A stretch of 32,053 bases of DNA. Origin: a virus. The position numbers and the translations under genes are program-made. The notes below the pieces were generated by a model. It saw only the letters and a program-made list of their open reading frames with translations, was not told the DNA's origin and did no database searches. The stretch is from UHGV virus genome UHGV-0252067; one strand, given 5' to 3'. This document shows positions 16,415 through 32,045 of the stretch, one piece after another (position 1 is the first letter of the stretch; each line of letters starts with the position of its first letter).

Positions 16415-16488
16415 TGGAGCCCATGACGGGGGTCGAACCCGCCCTTCCGGCGTGGGAAGCCAGTGTCCTGCCGCTGGACCACATGGGC
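16415..16488 (-). tRNA. tRNA-Gly (anticodon CCC)
   Basis: Full 74-nt cloverleaf: GCCCATG/CATGGGC acceptor stem, GTCC/GGAC D stem, CTGGC-TTCCCAC-GCCGG anticodon arm, GCGGG-TTCGACC-CCCGT T arm, U discriminator and encoded CCA. Confidence 0.93.
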
Positions 16489-26837: not shown

Positions 26838-27278
26838 TTGCGTATCACCGAAACAGTGGAACGGCTTTGCCGGCGATACGGCACCCGGGACCCTTTCGAG
26901 ATAGCTGATCAGCGCCGCATCCTTATTATCTTTGAATCTTTGGGGGAAATTCGAGGCTATTGCAGCACCGCCTACCGGCAAAAATTCATTCACATCAATC
27001 AGGACCTCACCGAGGAACAGCAGCGCTTTACCTGCTGCCACGAGCTGGGGCATATCATATTGCATCCCGGCCTCAACACCCCTTTCCTGCGGGAAAATAC
27101 GTTGTTTTCTGTAAGCAAGCTGGAAACCGAAGCCAACCGGTTCGCCATCTGTATGCTCTGCGACCAAGATGTCGCCCAGGAGATGATTCAGGGCGGCCGC
27201 CAGGTTTCCGACATCCCCGCCCCTTGGCGTGATCTGGTGCAGTGGCGGCTGGAACAACTCCCTTGTGGAAAAAAATGA
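26838..27278 (+). CDS. ImmA/IrrE-family metallopeptidase (anti-repressor)
   Basis: Motifs TRDPFEIA, IHIN, RFTCCHELGH (HExxH), ETEANRFA; directly follows the repressor. Confidence 0.93.
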   Translation: MRITETVERLCRRYGTRDPFEIADQRRILIIFESLGEIRGYCSTAYRQKFIHINQDLTEEQQRFTCCHELGHIILHPGLNTPFLRENTLFSVSKLETEANRFAICMLCDQDVAQEMIQGGRQVSDIPAPWRDLVQWRLEQLPCGKK

Positions 27279-27294
27279 ATGGAGGTGCAGCGTC

Positions 27295-28350
27295 TTGTTT
27301 GGCCTTTCCATGGAAGAAATGGTTCTGAAAGAACTGGATGAAATCCGCCAAGAGCTTTCCATCTCTCTCATTCCTCCCATGCGGGAACTGGCTTCCCAAA
27401 CAGATACAGTGGAGAAAGCCAAAGATACGGCCGCGTCCTTCACCGCCATGCTGCGGCAAAGCCTGCTCGAGGAGGTAACAGCGAAGATTGCAACAGCCTC
27501 CCCAAAAGTGCAGCAGCGGTTCCAAGAGGCTATGGCCGATCCTTCCCTGGCCGGATTGCCAGTGCCCTTTATTCCAGGATTTGGGAACTTATACGCCGTC
27601 TGGCTCTATGCTCTGGGCCATACGCCATCAGATAATAAAGGGTTGGCTTGTACTGCGGCGTTGGAGATGAAATTGATCACCACAATTGATGAGCAAATTG
27701 GGCCTTATTTTCCTTGGCCCAAAGAGCCGGAGGATGCCCCATCGCCCCAGCCCGCTACCCCGGTAGAACCAGTTATCCCCGCAAGTTCTGAAGCTGCCCC
27801 TTCTCAGCAAGCACCCAAAGCCCGGATCAAGGTGCGGGTTAAAGAAAAAAGTGTTTCGGCAACCCCAATTCAAGAGGATCTCCCTTCCTCCAAAACAACT
27901 CCCACTGTTCCGGTGGCGCCACCTGCAAACAAACGCTCTCCCTTAAAAATCGCTTTAACCAACTTTTTGGGTGTAGCTGCTGGCGGGGTATCTTACATTC
28001 TTCTTAGCCTACTCACCGCATGGGTTTTTACGTTCATCGGCCAATTCCCCCTTCTTACCAGTATCTTATATTGGCCTTCTTCCTATTTTTCCACTGCATT
28101 GGTCACCATGAACGCTATTCCCCTGATGGGATCTATCTACATATCTTATTTTATATGCGCTCCTTCGGCCAATAACCGGCGTTACGGGTTGGTTGCATAT
28201 GGGATAGCCATGATCCTCTTCACTTTGCTTCTGGCAGTATTCAGCGGACAGTTTGGCCTGATGGATGGGCTTATAGTATATGGGCTCCATCTATTTGCCT
28301 CAGGCATAGCTATTGCCGTCGGCTTAGACAAAAATCAGTTTAATACATAA
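27295..28350 (+). CDS. Lysogeny-module membrane protein (soluble N-domain, Pro-rich linker, ~4 C-terminal TM helices)
   Basis: GGAGGTG RBS before TTG at 27295; hydrophobic C-terminal third. Confidence 0.75.
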   Translation: MFGLSMEEMVLKELDEIRQELSISLIPPMRELASQTDTVEKAKDTAASFTAMLRQSLLEEVTAKIATASPKVQQRFQEAMADPSLAGLPVPFIPGFGNLYAVWLYALGHTPSDNKGLACTAALEMKLITTIDEQIGPYFPWPKEPEDAPSPQPATPVEPVIPASSEAAPSQQAPKARIKVRVKEKSVSATPIQEDLPSSKTTPTVPVAPPANKRSPLKIALTNFLGVAAGGVSYILLSLLTAWVFTFIGQFPLLTSILYWPSSYFSTALVTMNAIPLMGSIYISYFICAPSANNRRYGLVAYGIAMILFTLLLAVFSGQFGLMDGLIVYGLHLFASGIAIAVGLDKNQFNT

Positions 28351-28459
28351 AAAATCCCCCACCGGCGGCAACCGGCAGGGGATTGTAAGATAGCTTACCC
28401 AATGTGGATAAACCATCTGTCAGCAAGATGATTGTACCACCTTTGGGCAGGCTTGTCAA
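28349..28459 (-). ncRNA. Antisense small-RNA unit upstream of the integrase
   Basis: TTGACA-17-TACAAT with TG (28459-28431); 14-bp hairpin and 12-bp terminator hairpin plus T-run. All non-Watson-Crick pairs are G-U on the minus strand. Confidence 0.75.
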
Positions 28460-28485
28460 AGTGTGCCTTAAAGGAGGTATTTTTT

Positions 28486-29568
28486 ATGGGAAAACGAGTG
28501 AATACAGCTGTTTGGATGGAGAAACAAAGCCGCTGGCAGATCAAAGTCCAGAAAGATGGGGTGCGAAAGACCTTCTACTCCTCCAAGCCTGGCCGGACTG
28601 GACAGCGGGAAGCCAATGCCAAGGCGGACGCCTGGCTGGATGATGGCATCCAGGGCGGGAACCTGCGGGTGGAAGAGCTTTTTGACGCCTATGTGGATGA
28701 TCTGAAAAAGACAACCAGTCAATCCAACTGGCGTAAAATCGAATGGTATGGAAGAGTGTGGCTGAAACCTCAGATCGGGGCCAAACGGATTTCCCGAATA
28801 ACCGAGGATGATTTTCAGCAGCTCATCAACAAGATGTACCAGAAGGGCCTCTCCAAAAAGACCCTCCTCTGTTTCCGAGCAATGATTTCCCAGTTTTGTA
28901 AATACTGCCGTCGAATAAAAGCCACCACCCTAAGCCCAGAATTTTTGGAAATCCCCAAGGGGGCTCCCACAAAACCCAAGGCCATTCTCCAGCCGGAGCA
29001 CCTTTCTGTCCTGTTTTCATCTGACCAAACCACATACCGCGGGAAAACCGTCCACGATCCATTGGTTTACGCATACCGCTTTCAAGTCTTGACCGGCCTG
29101 CGCCCAGGCGAACTAATCGGGCTGCGATGGGATGATATAACGGGTGATGTAGTCCATATCCGTCGGTCTGTCAATGTACATGGGGAGACTACCAATGGGA
29201 AAAATGAAAATGCCCATCGCTCCTTCCTTTTGACCAAATCTGCCCAATCCGTATTGGATGACCAGCGTCGGAACTCTTTGTCCTTTGCCGGCCCGGTCTT
29301 CCCTATCCGGAAAGAGCCCTATTACTATGACCGATGGAAAACATATTGCAGAGCCAACAATATTCCACAAATTACTCCCTACGAGCTGCGCCACACCTTT
29401 GTTTCCATGGCCAAAAACCTGCCGGAAGGCCAAGTAAAAACTCTCGTAGGCCATTCTCAAAATATGGATACTCTGGGCACCTATTCCCATGAAATGCATA
29501 AGGATATGGAGCGGACCGCAGATGCCCTCGAATCTGTGATCCGTGACATTTTGGCCCCCAACGAATAA
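28486..29568 (+). CDS. int: Tyrosine integrase
   Basis: TGLRPGELIGLRWDD, GKNENAHR, YELRHTF, LVGHS, GTYSH catalytic motifs; AAGGAGGT RBS before ATG 28486. Confidence 0.95.
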   Translation: MGKRVNTAVWMEKQSRWQIKVQKDGVRKTFYSSKPGRTGQREANAKADAWLDDGIQGGNLRVEELFDAYVDDLKKTTSQSNWRKIEWYGRVWLKPQIGAKRISRITEDDFQQLINKMYQKGLSKKTLLCFRAMISQFCKYCRRIKATTLSPEFLEIPKGAPTKPKAILQPEHLSVLFSSDQTTYRGKTVHDPLVYAYRFQVLTGLRPGELIGLRWDDITGDVVHIRRSVNVHGETTNGKNENAHRSFLLTKSAQSVLDDQRRNSLSFAGPVFPIRKEPYYYDRWKTYCRANNIPQITPYELRHTFVSMAKNLPEGQVKTLVGHSQNMDTLGTYSHEMHKDMERTADALESVIRDILAPNE

Positions 29569-29790
29569 CCCATTTTATAACCCACTTTTTCATAAACGAA
29601 GAAAACATCCGTTTTCTTTAACTGATTTGATTATCAAAAAACAGCTTAAACAAGCCATTTTCCGCAGCAATAACTTTTCGTTTGTTTTTCGCTACTCATT
29701 CGAATCCAGTCGGGCACACCAACGAAACCCCGCAGGAACATGCCGTTCTTGCGGGGTCTTTTTTGTCTATATAACCCACATAATAACCCA
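29565..29790 (+). other. attP: tRNA 3'-end core flanked by paired arm-type repeats
   Basis: Core TTCGAATCCAGTCGGGCACACCA (29699-29721); ATAACCCA at 29565/29577 and 29771/29783. Confidence 0.9.
29727..29764 (+). terminator. Intrinsic terminator after the att core
   Basis: ACCCCGCAGGAAC-ATGCC-GTTCTTGCGGGGT followed by CTTTTTT. Confidence 0.85.
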
Positions 29791-29829
29791 CTTTTCCAAG
29801 AGCCGTTTTTATAAACTTTTGAAAACATC

Positions 29830-29933
29830 TTGCACTTTCGCTGTCATCTGATATAATTTAAATGAACACTATCCAATATCAAGGGAAAGCCCCTGGCCAG
29901 GTTCTATCGCCTGACTGGGGGTTTTTCCTTTTT
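29830..29933 (+). ncRNA. Orphan small-RNA unit (promoter plus long terminator hairpin)
   Basis: TTGCAC-16-TATAAT with TG extension (29830-29857), ~18 nt unpaired, then a ~21-bp hairpin ending in a T-run. Confidence 0.6.
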
Positions 29934-29964
29934 CCAGTAAATAGCCAACAAGTTGCGAGCAGAC

Positions 29965-30001
29965 AAACTACCCCCGACCCTCCTAAATGGAGAGCCGGGG
30001 G
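29965..30001 (-). terminator. Terminator, copy 1 of the direct repeat
   Basis: AAACTACCCCCGACCCTCC-TAAAT-GGAGAGCCGGGGG, downstream of the RHH gene. Confidence 0.8.
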
Positions 30002-30007
30002 AAATTT

Positions 30008-30214
30008 CTATTTTCCTGGCGTTGCTTCCCGCCTCATGCGTTCTTCCACCGCCTTGCGGACATATTCATTCAGCGTCTCTCCCTGGGCTTCTGCGGCAGC
30101 TTTGATCAACGCTTTCATTCCTTTTGGAAAGAGAACCTCAACTCGATCTGAGTTTTTCGCACGGCTGGCCTGAACCTGTGCGGGATCGCTTTTTCTCTTT
30201 TTGGATTCTTCCAC
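30008..30214 (-). CDS. Ribbon-helix-helix (Arc/CopG-like) DNA-binding protein
   Basis: DRVEVLFPKGMKALIKAAAEAQGETLNEYVRKAVEERM; GGAGGTGA RBS; extended -10 TGTGCTATACT upstream. Confidence 0.85.
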   Translation of the reverse strand: MEESKKRKSDPAQVQASRAKNSDRVEVLFPKGMKALIKAAAEAQGETLNEYVRKAVEERMRREATPGK

Positions 30215-30254
30215 GGTGTATCACCTCCAAAGAATAGTATAGCACAGTTTTGAT

Positions 30255-30362
30255 TAACCGGATATATACAAATCCCATATGAATAACCGGATATGTTTGT
30301 GCAAAATAGACCGAATATAATTCGCTAAAACGCTTGACATAACCGGTTATGTATGGTATAAT
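30255..30362 (+). promoter_or_regulatory. Consensus sigma-A promoter with three palindromic operators
   Basis: TTGACA(30334)-17-TATAAT(30357) with TG; perfect palindrome ACATAACCGGTTATGT (30337-30352); variants TAACCGGATAT at 30255 and 30284. Confidence 0.9.
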
Positions 30363-30388
30363 AAAATCAAAGGAAAGGAGGTGACACA

Positions 30389-30511
30389 GTGGATGACCTA
30401 AAAGATTGGCTAGAAATAGCAAAGGACTTGCTCGAAATCCTCGTCCTGGTTTTGACAGCCCACCAGCTGGTCAGAGGCAAGAAAAAGAGCAAGTCCAAGC
30501 GGAGGGGATAA
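30389..30511 (+). CDS. 40-aa amphipathic/hydrophobic peptide with basic tail (type I toxin-like; not in the ORF track)
   Basis: AAGGAGGTGA RBS; MDDLKDWLEIAKDLLEILVLVLTAHQLVRGKKKSKSKRRG*. Confidence 0.78.
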   Translation: MDDLKDWLEIAKDLLEILVLVLTAHQLVRGKKKSKSKRRG

Positions 30512-30568
30512 CCCTCCGCCCCCTCTTGGGGGTATTTCTAGTATACCACATCCACTGCCCAAATGAAA
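30482..30568 (-). ncRNA. Antisense RNA unit overlapping the 3' end of the peptide gene
   Basis: TTTCAT-17-TATACT with TG (30568-30540), followed by an 8-bp GCGGAGGG/CCCTCCGC hairpin and CTCTTTTTC. Confidence 0.6.
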
Positions 30569-30727
30569 GATTATTCTATCCGCATCCTATTGATCGGTTT
30601 GGTTCTGCTCAACCTATTGGATGGAGATTTTCAGAACCCCAGCACTTTGGATTGGGTCAAATTCTCTCTGCTGGCCCTTTGCCTGATTCTCTCGTTTTAT
30701 CGGAAAGGAGCAAAAAACAATGGATAA
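30563..30727 (+). CDS. 54-aa two-TM membrane protein (not in the ORF track)
   Basis: MKDYSIRILLIGLVLLNLLDGDFQNPSTLDWVKFSLLALCLILSFYRKGAKNNG*; its end overlaps the next start codon; no adjacent SD. Confidence 0.7.
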   Translation: MKDYSIRILLIGLVLLNLLDGDFQNPSTLDWVKFSLLALCLILSFYRKGAKNNG

Positions 30728-30924
30728 CTCCCCTTTTGACGGCCTCCTCTCCTTTGGGGAAGCCACCCAGCTGTGGGGCCTCCACGAAAGCACCTTACGC
30801 AAGGCTGTTGCCTATGGCAAGTTCCAGGAGGGCCAGGACATAAAAAAAATTTGGCAAACAATGGGTCATCACCCGCGCCGCCATGGAGCGGGTATACGGC
30901 CCCCAACCGGACCCCAAGGATTAA
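30720..30924 (+). pseudogene. Small HTH protein gene frameshifted in an A8 run
   Basis: SFGEATQLWGLHESTLRKAV HTH. Removing one A at 30842-30849 gives ..DIKKFGKQWVITRAAMERVYGPQPDPKD* (67 aa), ending exactly at the terminator. Confidence 0.78.
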
Positions 30925-30961
30925 AACTACCCCCGACCCTCCTATTATGGAGAGCCGGGGG
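30924..30961 (-). terminator. Terminator, copy 2 of the direct repeat (possibly bidirectional)
   Basis: AAACTACCCCCGACCCTCC-TATTAT-GGAGAGCCGGGGG between the convergent HTH and amidase genes. Confidence 0.8.
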
Positions 30962-30970
30962 TGTTTCTTT

Positions 30971-31618
30971 TTACTCCAGGGTGATGTGATAAATCCCGTA
31001 CTGCTTGAGCATCTCCCCCAGTTCCTGGATGGAGATGGTTTTGGTGTCGGGGTTGGGCTTTTTGTCCTGAAAAGGAATCCCCAGGCATTCCAGCACCGCT
31101 TTGGCATAGGCTTGTCCAAAGGCTTGCTGCTCTTGCTCTGTGTCGATAATCTCCCGGTCTTTGCTGTCCAGGAATGCCCCCTCACAGAGCACTGCCGGGC
31201 ACTGGTTCAGCCGCAGCCAGCCGAAGTAATCCTGGCCGGTGGCCATGAGGCGGGTCTTAATCCCCCGGCTGTTCTGGCCGATCTGCTTCACCTGGGCCTC
31301 CATAAGCCCGGCCAGTTTCCGGGACTGCTCCTTGTATGCGCCGGTCTGGACATACACCTCAAACCCATCCCCGCCCCCGGCGTTGTTGTGGATCTCCACC
31401 GCCAAATCCGGGGCAAAGGCTTTGGCTTCCCGAAGTTCCTCCTGGAGGGGATCGTTCTCATCTGCTGTCCGGGAGAGAGCCACCTCCACCCCATGCCGGG
31501 TGAGAATCTTGGCCATCTCCAGAGCCATAACCAGGTTGATGTCCTTCTCCTGCAATCCACCGGCCACCGCCCCAGGGTCTTTTCCCCCGTGGCCCACGCC
31601 GATGAACACTTTACTCAT
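30971..31618 (-). CDS. Endolysin, N-acetylmuramoyl-L-alanine amidase (Amidase_3)
   Basis: Zn-ligand motifs GHGGKDPGA, EKDINL, EIHNNA, PAVLCEGAFLD. Confidence 0.95.
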   Translation of the reverse strand: MSKVFIGVGHGGKDPGAVAGGLQEKDINLVMALEMAKILTRHGVEVALSRTADENDPLQEELREAKAFAPDLAVEIHNNAGGGDGFEVYVQTGAYKEQSRKLAGLMEAQVKQIGQNSRGIKTRLMATGQDYFGWLRLNQCPAVLCEGAFLDSKDREIIDTEQEQQAFGQAYAKAVLECLGIPFQDKKPNPDTKTISIQELGEMLKQYGIYHITLE

Positions 31619-32045
31619 GGGTGATATCCCCTTTCTCCTGCAATTGGGCCAGCACTGTCTTGAGGATGGGCGGGATGTTGTTCCCCAGCTTGCCGTAGTT
31701 TTCCAAAATGCTCAATAATTCCCTCGCTATGTAAAACCAGATTACCGCTGTGCGGATGTAAGGCTCCCCGGCTCCCAGGAGGCTGTCCAGGAGGACGCCT
31801 ACCCCCACCAGGCCCAGGACCAGCACCTTATTTACCCCGCCCCAGAACATCACCTGGCTGTCGGTGGTGTGGTTTTTGACGCTGGCTGCAAACCCCAGCA
31901 CAAAATCCAGGGCCATAAAGGCGATGAGGGCCTGGACCATCAGATCCCAGCCGCCCAGGAGCCAGTTTAGAGCCGTGCCCGCCGCCGCGAAGCAGCTGGA
32001 CACCCGGAGGCCGAAGCTCCCGTAGTTGTTGATTCCCAAATACAA
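31611..32045 (-). CDS. Holin (toxin secretion/phage lysis holin type)
   Basis: LGGWD..L..FMALDF..G, KVLV, ELLSILENYGKLG..IP..L..VLAQL motifs; overlaps the endolysin start. Confidence 0.92.
   Translation of the reverse strand: MYLGINNYGSFGLRVSSCFAAAGTALNWLLGGWDLMVQALIAFMALDFVLGFAASVKNHTTDSQVMFWGGVNKVLVLGLVGVGVLLDSLLGAGEPYIRTAVIWFYIARELLSILENYGKLGNNIPPILKTVLAQLQEKGDITHE

Follow-up and report, generated by a model that had tools for sequence, protein, structure and literature searches.

The operon yonT-yoyJ-yonU of SPbeta comprises two toxins controlled by one antisense RNA, the 100-nt SR6; decay of yonT mRNA depends on RNase III, the second toxin is weakly translated, and two toxins under a single antitoxin are called exceptional in the accessible part of the report (PMC5848175). 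An earlier note on the DNA analysed here held that type I loci are normally stand-alone, which this published operon shows to be too sweeping. YonT is classed among the 3'-overlap families in the available portion of PMC8594479, and YhzE-2 of B. subtilis has an antisense RNA and encodes a peptide that is not toxic, according to the available portion of PMC2887945. In Clostridioides difficile, the prophage pairs CD0977.1-RCd11, CD0904.1-RCd13 and the CD0956.2-RCd10 group help to maintain the prophage, as far as the accessible parts of two reports go (PMC7699646, PMC6563280). Among regulators of acr-aca operons, Aca14 is a ribbon-helix-helix (RHH) protein that represses both its own and the neighbouring operon, according to the accessible text of a preprint (bioRxiv 10.64898/2026.07.27.740549).

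The cassette described below matches the layout of yonT/SR6/yoyJ, and its peptides do not belong to the YonT family by sequence. Its conserved core consists of the peptide gene pepA, a predicted structured antisense RNA of ~115 nt, the peptide gene pepB, and one interchangeable third gene.

Setting and boundaries of the cassette

The window, by which is meant the whole 32,053-nt stretch of DNA analysed (UHGV-0252067), belongs to a temperate phage with annotated terminase, portal, capsid, repressor region, tyrosine integrase (28432-29568), amidase and holin. The cassette is located between the integrase side and the lysin (the amidase, 30971-31618, minus strand) and is bounded by two near-identical 37-bp direct repeats, both of which form minus-strand hairpins resembling intrinsic terminators: the left copy (29965..30001) is predicted to end the RHH transcript, and the right copy (30924..30961) follows the amidase gene. 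No exact copies of this repeat were found in the viral contigs searched. At least half of the sampled words of the cassette are present in eight public runs, most of them labelled gut.

On the integrase side, a stretch (29699-29721) that we take to resemble the 3' end of a tRNA, a resemblance matched by no tool, is flanked by repeated ATAACCCA(C/T)TTT boxes (29565-29798) that are likely the arm and core sites of the integrase in attP; thus, the cassette would lie close to one prophage end once integrated. A promoter-like TTGCAC-17-TATAAT and a hairpin (29829-29925), without a clear ORF, separate this region from the cassette and possibly specify a small RNA. Elsewhere in the phage, a 373-aa membrane-tailed protein of no Pfam family is encoded between an IrrE-like peptidase and the integrase (27229-28350), and its gene is replaced in several runs. 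In several runs most of the amidase gene (31061-31630) is likewise substituted by an unrelated stretch of similar length, which is lysin catalytic-domain swapping. The phage also carries a tRNA-Gly(CCC) (16415-16488).

The two peptides

Both of the small peptide genes proposed in the earlier note were located. PepA (30389..30511, plus strand, 40 aa) has one short hydrophobic helix, a basic K/R tail and a strong Shine-Dalgarno (SD) sequence. PepB (30563..30727, plus strand, 54 aa) has a hydrophobic segment on either side of an invariant DGD loop and lacks an SD sequence; an SD core of at least 4 nt precedes it in just one of 33 modules, and so PepB is probably made at a lower level than PepA. 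The two genes are presumably co-transcribed. Neither peptide has a family in Pfam, PHROG, NCBIfam or PADLOC; none of the four cassette proteins matches a PADLOC 2.0 protein model at E<=0.01, Rfam offers nothing credible for the cassette, and the ESM Atlas returns unnamed clusters only.

The pairing of the peptides is close to strict. Among 41 non-redundant loci (window included), 35 encode both peptides, four PepA only (one truncated by a contig edge) and two PepB only (one truncated likewise). PepB accompanies PepA in 25 of the 27 loci retrieved by PepA, and PepA lies upstream in 7/8 distinct PepB-retrieved loci that have upstream DNA. A PepA profile search yielded 59 clusters at 50% identity, a few of them probably spurious, and strong PepB matches occur in 6 of about 1,100 sampled Clostridia genomes (three seeds aside), many of these assemblies being incomplete. 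Matches to PepB under 33 bits (L092, L098-L102, L105-L108), most of which fall in long open frames, were dropped, and 9/12 matches of a PepB pattern are without a PepB hit.

Both peptides are under purifying selection, with median dN/dS of 0.36 for PepA (145/496 pairs usable) and 0.18 for PepB (16/561 pairs usable), and nucleotide identity is lowest at the third codon position in both (0.65/0.76/0.50 for PepA and 0.52/0.72/0.36 for PepB at positions 1, 2 and 3); close PepB pairs are less clear-cut, amino-acid changes often being as many as silent ones. With fewer than 60 residues, a hydrophobic segment of modest hydrophobicity, a charged C-terminus and selection on its coding sequence, PepA is a candidate type I toxin whose family has no model in the libraries searched.

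The predicted antisense RNA

The convergent antisense promoter that the earlier note placed inside the operon is present as a predicted extended -10 (30540-30549, minus strand) within a promoter (30540..30568) whose -35 overlaps the PepB ATG. This geometry is conserved in 32/34 modules, the minus-strand extended -10 being located 22-25 nt from the PepB ATG, so that the antisense -35 falls on the start codon. In both modules with pepA lost or broken (L090 and L096), the antisense -10 is degraded. Thus arranged, the promoter would yield a structured RNA of ~115 nt with three stem-loops (about 30418..30533, minus strand, predicted ends) over the 3' part of pepA, the arrangement of type I loci; the fold predicted for 30420-30533 has a z-score of -4.9. 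The pepA leader is short and its SD sequence weakly paired, unlike those of many type I toxin mRNAs.

The final helix of the RNA (10 bp, 30424-30433 pairing with 30487-30496) brings together the KDLL codons and a motif close to the stop codon, and it covaries. In an alignment of 19 of the 34 modules, from which near-duplicates, a long-spacer group and three divergent modules were excluded, and with the structure taken from the fold of the window itself, 90.5% of the helix positions are paired, changes on both sides occur at 5/10 pairs, and there are 23 compensatory cells versus 7.0 +/- 2.4 in shuffles (attained in 0/500 shuffles; slid controls <=5). The antisense strand has the lower folding energy in 31/33 modules, the sense strand often has the stronger z-score, and the covarying pairs are mostly Watson-Crick, so that the helix could serve the mRNA instead. 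A plus-strand promoter in the antisense -10 region, feeding PepB, was also considered. The RNA runs consist of unstranded contigs, whose breaks match places where a DNA run also breaks and were for that reason discarded as evidence. A 14-nt stretch in the HTH_59 gene (30743-30756) is complementary to the pepA SD region (30368-30381), which may be chance.

The RHH gene and the operon promoter

The divergent gene at the left of the cassette (30008..30214, minus strand) encodes a 68-aa Arc-type RHH protein (phrog_13890, PHROG match E 1.6e-13). Its structural model (pLDDT 85) has the strand-helix-helix fold of the Arc/MetJ repressors; the best Foldseek matches, Arc and AmrZ, have probabilities of 0.97-0.99 but E of 0.33 or more, and the PDB profile match is to Arc (E 0.014). 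Fourteen close homologues are 89-100% identical, the nearest named relative (96% identical) being from Merdimmobilis hominis, and a viral search with the protein found no relatives among 55 candidates.

Three TAACCGG(A/T)TAT boxes, one a palindrome inside a TTGACA-17-TATAAT promoter, had been noted previously beside this gene, and all were confirmed. Box 1 (TAACCGGATAT, 30255..30265) overlies the predicted -35 of the RHH promoter, which has a predicted extended -10 (TGTGCTATACT, 30235..30246, minus strand) and an SD sequence (30222-30228, minus strand); box 2 (TAACCGGATAT) is at 30284..30294, and a degenerate fourth box with three mismatches is at 30308-30318. Box 3 lies in a 16-bp palindrome (ACATAACCGGTTATGT, 30337-30352, p=0.004) within the operon promoter, a TTGACA-17-TG-TATAAT of sigma-A-type consensus (30334..30362, plus strand, 12/12 hexamer positions). 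Across the whole window, exact TAACCGGWTAT occurs only at 30255, 30284 and 30339/30340, and with up to one mismatch there are five occurrences versus 0.63 expected, a number that 0/100 shuffles reach. Three repeated boxes are also found upstream of 5/8 RHH relatives (40-57% identity; 0/40 shuffles in each case), the remaining three relatives being downstream genes of operons. The RHH protein is predicted to repress both the operon promoter and its own promoter.

In L111, L112, L114, L115 and L116 the three-box regions are divergent control regions whose box sequence differs with each RHH protein, and the genes to their left encode small proteins of no known kind. A DNA pattern search for double boxes gave 19 loci, none of which was entered into the results.

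The regulator slot and its probable takeover

In the 32 relatives whose gene after pepB could be classified (in a further one it could not), nine families are distinguished: three XRE groups, HTH_59, an HTH_17-like family, three RHH-like groups (Pfam RHH above cut-off in one, weak in one and absent from one) and one beta-rich family without assignment. This last, a 64-aa family with a KPIKLSP motif, is the commonest third gene (8/33); it has no Pfam or fold assignment, a fold search having found nothing, and is a candidate new DNA-binding family. It occupies the regulator slot in L020 (3333-3527), L023, L036, L078, L090 and L095, mostly with a TACG-type spacer palindrome. Upstream of the L096 module, in which pepA is broken and the antisense -10 absent, the minus strand carries an RHH gene whose product has an acidic tail and, after it, an ORF that is presumably PIN-like by its motif.

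The promoter spacer co-varies with the third-gene family. Among pairs with PepB identity under 70%, spacers agree at 11.3/16 positions within a family (43 pairs) versus 6.8 between families (437 pairs), and 0/2000 permutations match this association, although the relatives are not independent and kinship inflates the significance. Well-supported peptide clades contain mixed regulator families, and module 1 of L034, which has different peptides, has an RHH family and a near-identical palindrome in common with L030. Significant palindromes are present in 17/33 spacers, both HTH_17 modules being without any. The motif TCAC-N6-GTGA is found in the spacer of all four PepA-PepB-HTH_59 loci and of 16/18 unrelated DUF2442-HTH_59 operons, which are closely related to one another. 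In the latter (L047-L064, for example L049:2755-3198), the DUF2442-HTH_59 fusions stand behind a short gene, which we take to be DUF4160-like, antisense among phage structural-type genes; the first gene of the operon has been lost in L048 and L052. These operons and module 1 of L034 serve as two checks that do not depend on PepA and PepB.

The third gene of the window itself is HTH_59 (PF20038, 30720..30923, plus strand), a family found in this slot in just 4/32 classified relatives. Its broken reading frame, which the earlier note attributed to an error of the ORF track, is a true frameshift in a poly-A run (30842-30849): read through the run, the gene encodes a 67-aa protein about 70-75% identical to its intact relatives. 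Seven runs cover the site, with the A8 allele of the window in four (one of which may be the window's own source), A9 in two and the in-frame A7 in one, so that the gene is out of frame in 6/7. TCAC-N6-GTGA, the predicted HTH_59 operator, is absent from the window. The HTH_59 gene, which the earlier note counted as a working part, is thus likely an orphaned former autoregulator in decay. Phase variation of the poly-A run as a purposeful switch ranks low, because the predicted operator is missing from the window.

A divergent RHH homologue is present in 0/27 PepA loci examined, and the palindrome of the window sits in a three-box region like that upstream of five of the eight RHH relatives. These comparisons suggest that, in this lineage, the promoter was exchanged for an RHH switch, which left HTH_59 an orphan. 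In the in-frame A7 run, one contig matches the operon from the -10 onward and differs upstream, which fits regulator replacement, the two contigs possibly being separate molecules. The type I-like peptide and antisense RNA of the earlier note gain support from the purifying selection and covariation; co-conservation of its four ORFs and a functional HTH gene are not borne out.

Genomic positions and mobility

Placement at a prophage end, which the earlier note assumed, is not a fixed site: relatives also occur beside terminase and among tail genes. In the 27 modules scanned, the neighbours are terminase or a late regulator in nine, lysis genes in five, tail genes in three, integrase in two and HicB in one, with no assignment in seven. 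The cassette is thus a moron, inserted at several different junctions. Four amidase relatives (52-60% identity) have no such cassette. A contig in one run joins 29813 to 30949, leaving a single terminator-like copy, and in another run different DNA occupies the slot; the deletion in this sole empty-site contig extends past the left repeat and so gives no indication of excision from repeat to repeat. Locus L034 (2230-4100) has, next to a HicB gene, three peptide-antisense-peptide-regulator modules in a row, divided by three identical terminator repeats, each module having its own regulator; modules 1 and 3 encode a different peptide pair in which the second gene has an SD sequence.

Possible functions

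The cassette is, on balance and by a slender measure, probably a doubly locked, two-peptide accessory operon of type I toxin-antitoxin character in a temperate gut phage. One lock would be the predicted ~115-nt antisense RNA: by annealing to the greater part of the pepA coding sequence, it would set off decay of pepA mRNA. The other would be the divergent RHH protein, acting as repressor at the strong promoter of the operon and at that of its own gene. Together they would hold PepA low in the lysogen. Upon loss of the prophage, or shut-off of the host by stress or by another phage, the locks would lapse, and growth of the cell would halt as PepA arrived at the membrane; the prophage would be stabilised in this way, and infections by rival phages might be aborted. 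PepB, lacking an SD sequence, would be a second, weakly made membrane peptide that takes the place of YoyJ in the layout. Relatives would encode the repressor in their third gene, whereas here the promoter has likely given way to an RHH switch with its own operators, leaving the resident HTH_59 gene to decay.

A more tentative possibility is a membrane effector released in a burst at phage entry, by the logic of acr-aca operons. As both the repressor and the antisense RNA are missing from a naive cell, the unchecked consensus promoter would drive synthesis of PepA and PepB in a pulse until the two locks close, and the pulse would block superinfection, counter host defence or dampen the host. 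The near-consensus promoter, small genes, terminal HTH/RHH gene and spacer palindrome are the acr-aca layout, and self-repression together with repression of the adjoining operon by an RHH protein has the precedent of Aca14 in the accessible part of the preprint (bioRxiv 10.64898/2026.07.27.740549). A dedicated repressor would be superfluous for a classic maintenance toxin, and the three L034 modules with a regulator each, beside HicB, accord with entry expression as well. However, the cassette has no Acr, anti-defence or PADLOC match among the libraries scanned (Pfam, PHROG, NCBIfam and PADLOC), the sampled modules are located at late-gene junctions and not in a leading region, and the pattern of a basic-tailed peptide gene overlain by a covarying antisense RNA is that of type I toxin-antitoxin loci. 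A wider and still speculative form of the same idea makes the cassette an undescribed modular class in Clostridia phages, whose timed pulse of membrane peptides on entry excludes rivals or blunts defence and in which a regulator swap is under way here; swapping repressors would stop the modules of co-resident phages from silencing one another.

It is improbable that PepA and PepB are subunits of a small membrane complex, or that PepB is an immunity factor for PepA, with the RNA only setting their ratio. The near-strict pairing in both directions, the invariant DGD loop of PepB and the similar pairing of different peptides in the two other L034 modules would suit such a partnership, but L070, L071 and L026 have PepA and the RNA helix and no PepB, L090 has PepB and no PepA, and PepB, without an SD sequence in 32/33 modules, is probably made at a lower level than its partner. 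A PepA-PepB complex prediction (score 0.03) weighs neither for nor against such a partnership. That the family functions elsewhere and the copy in the window, a chimera of two inserted modules, is decaying and has no role now, as the frameshifted HTH_59 and the related phage contigs with an empty or otherwise filled slot might indicate, is very improbable, given that the RHH gene, boxes, promoters, peptides and RNA helix are intact, that the covering contigs have no indel in them, and that the RHH protein has its 14 close homologues.

Comparison with known systems

The type I toxin-antitoxin reading draws most directly on yonT/SR6/yoyJ, which, in the accessible part of its description (PMC5848175), has in common with the cassette a sigma-A promoter, a short leader and a strong SD sequence; a first peptide with a hydrophobic helix and basic tail; a convergent antisense RNA of ~100 nt (predicted in the cassette) that starts from an extended -10 and runs across the 3' end portion of the first gene; and downstream a second, poorly translated membrane peptide followed by a third small gene. 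SR6 overlaps the annotated ribosome-binding site of yoyJ, whereas the PepB start lies in the antisense -35, outside the RNA, whose predicted start (near 30533) is ~30 nt upstream of the PepB ATG and reads away from PepB. The same part of PMC5848175 mentions neither a dedicated repressor nor an operator for yonT, whereas the third gene of the cassette is an exchangeable regulator.

Comparison of the PepA and PepB profiles with the single sequences of YonT and YoyJ gave no homology (14% and 0.5% probability, one aligned column each). The best 19-residue hydrophobicity mean is 1.56 for PepA versus 2.29 for YonT, and the net charge is +4 versus +17. In BLASTn of the cassette against 50,697 phage records, the matches are confined to 41-47 nt in two SPbeta-like phages, weak (E 8e-3) and falling on the -10 and SD sequence of yonT. 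Four PepA/PepB motifs are absent from the supplements of PMC2887945 (eight files searched, file 3 excepted). In L066 (1762-1791) and L065, both SPbeta-like, a second in-frame yoyJ ATG without an SD sequence is located 29 nt past the SR6 -10, near the position of PepB, and may be the real start.

The C. difficile pairs, compared by description alone from the accessible parts of PMC7699646 and PMC6563280, likewise combine a clostridial prophage peptide that has a hydrophobic N-terminus and lysine-rich tail with a 3'-overlapping antisense RNA; they differ in being under sigma-B or c-di-GMP riboswitch control, and neither a second peptide nor a co-encoded repressor is described there. Acr-aca operons, as set out in the available text of the preprint (bioRxiv 10.64898/2026.07.27.740549), place small cargo genes behind a strong promoter that contains an inverted repeat and encode an HTH/RHH repressor that can be exchanged, as does the cassette, in which co-variation points to a match between inverted-repeat promoter and co-encoded regulator; the cargo differs, consisting of membrane-type peptides and a cis antisense RNA, and so does the host group. 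The PeSL cassettes of T4-type phages resemble the cassette in that repeated terminator-containing elements bound accessory genes, but PeSL are promoter-terminator elements and the repeats of the window contain a terminator alone, on the available portion of PMC2839356. Neither a PepA/PepB pair nor a type I operon with an exchangeable autorepressor is described in the titles and opening abstract text of a mainly non-subscription literature.

If PepA is toxic, it represents a type I toxin family of commensal gut Clostridia that is unlisted in Pfam, PHROG, NCBIfam and PADLOC; the two-peptide layout of yonT/yoyJ, called exceptional, recurs widely with unrelated peptides; and a type I layout acquires the transcriptional autoregulation typical of type II systems and acr-aca operons. 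If the peptides instead act at phage entry, the layout would be a means of finding new membrane peptides for exclusion or anti-defence. The comparison also gives operator predictions for several uncharacterised small regulators, such as TCAC-N6-GTGA for HTH_59, and the window offers a natural case of regulator replacement, a probable takeover. The SD-less start of PepB in the antisense -35 is a reason to revisit yoyJ homologues judged non-functional for want of a ribosome-binding site. The layout is that already known from yonT/SR6/yoyJ, and what appears new is the peptide families, the exchangeable regulator-operator pair and the probable takeover by a new regulator.
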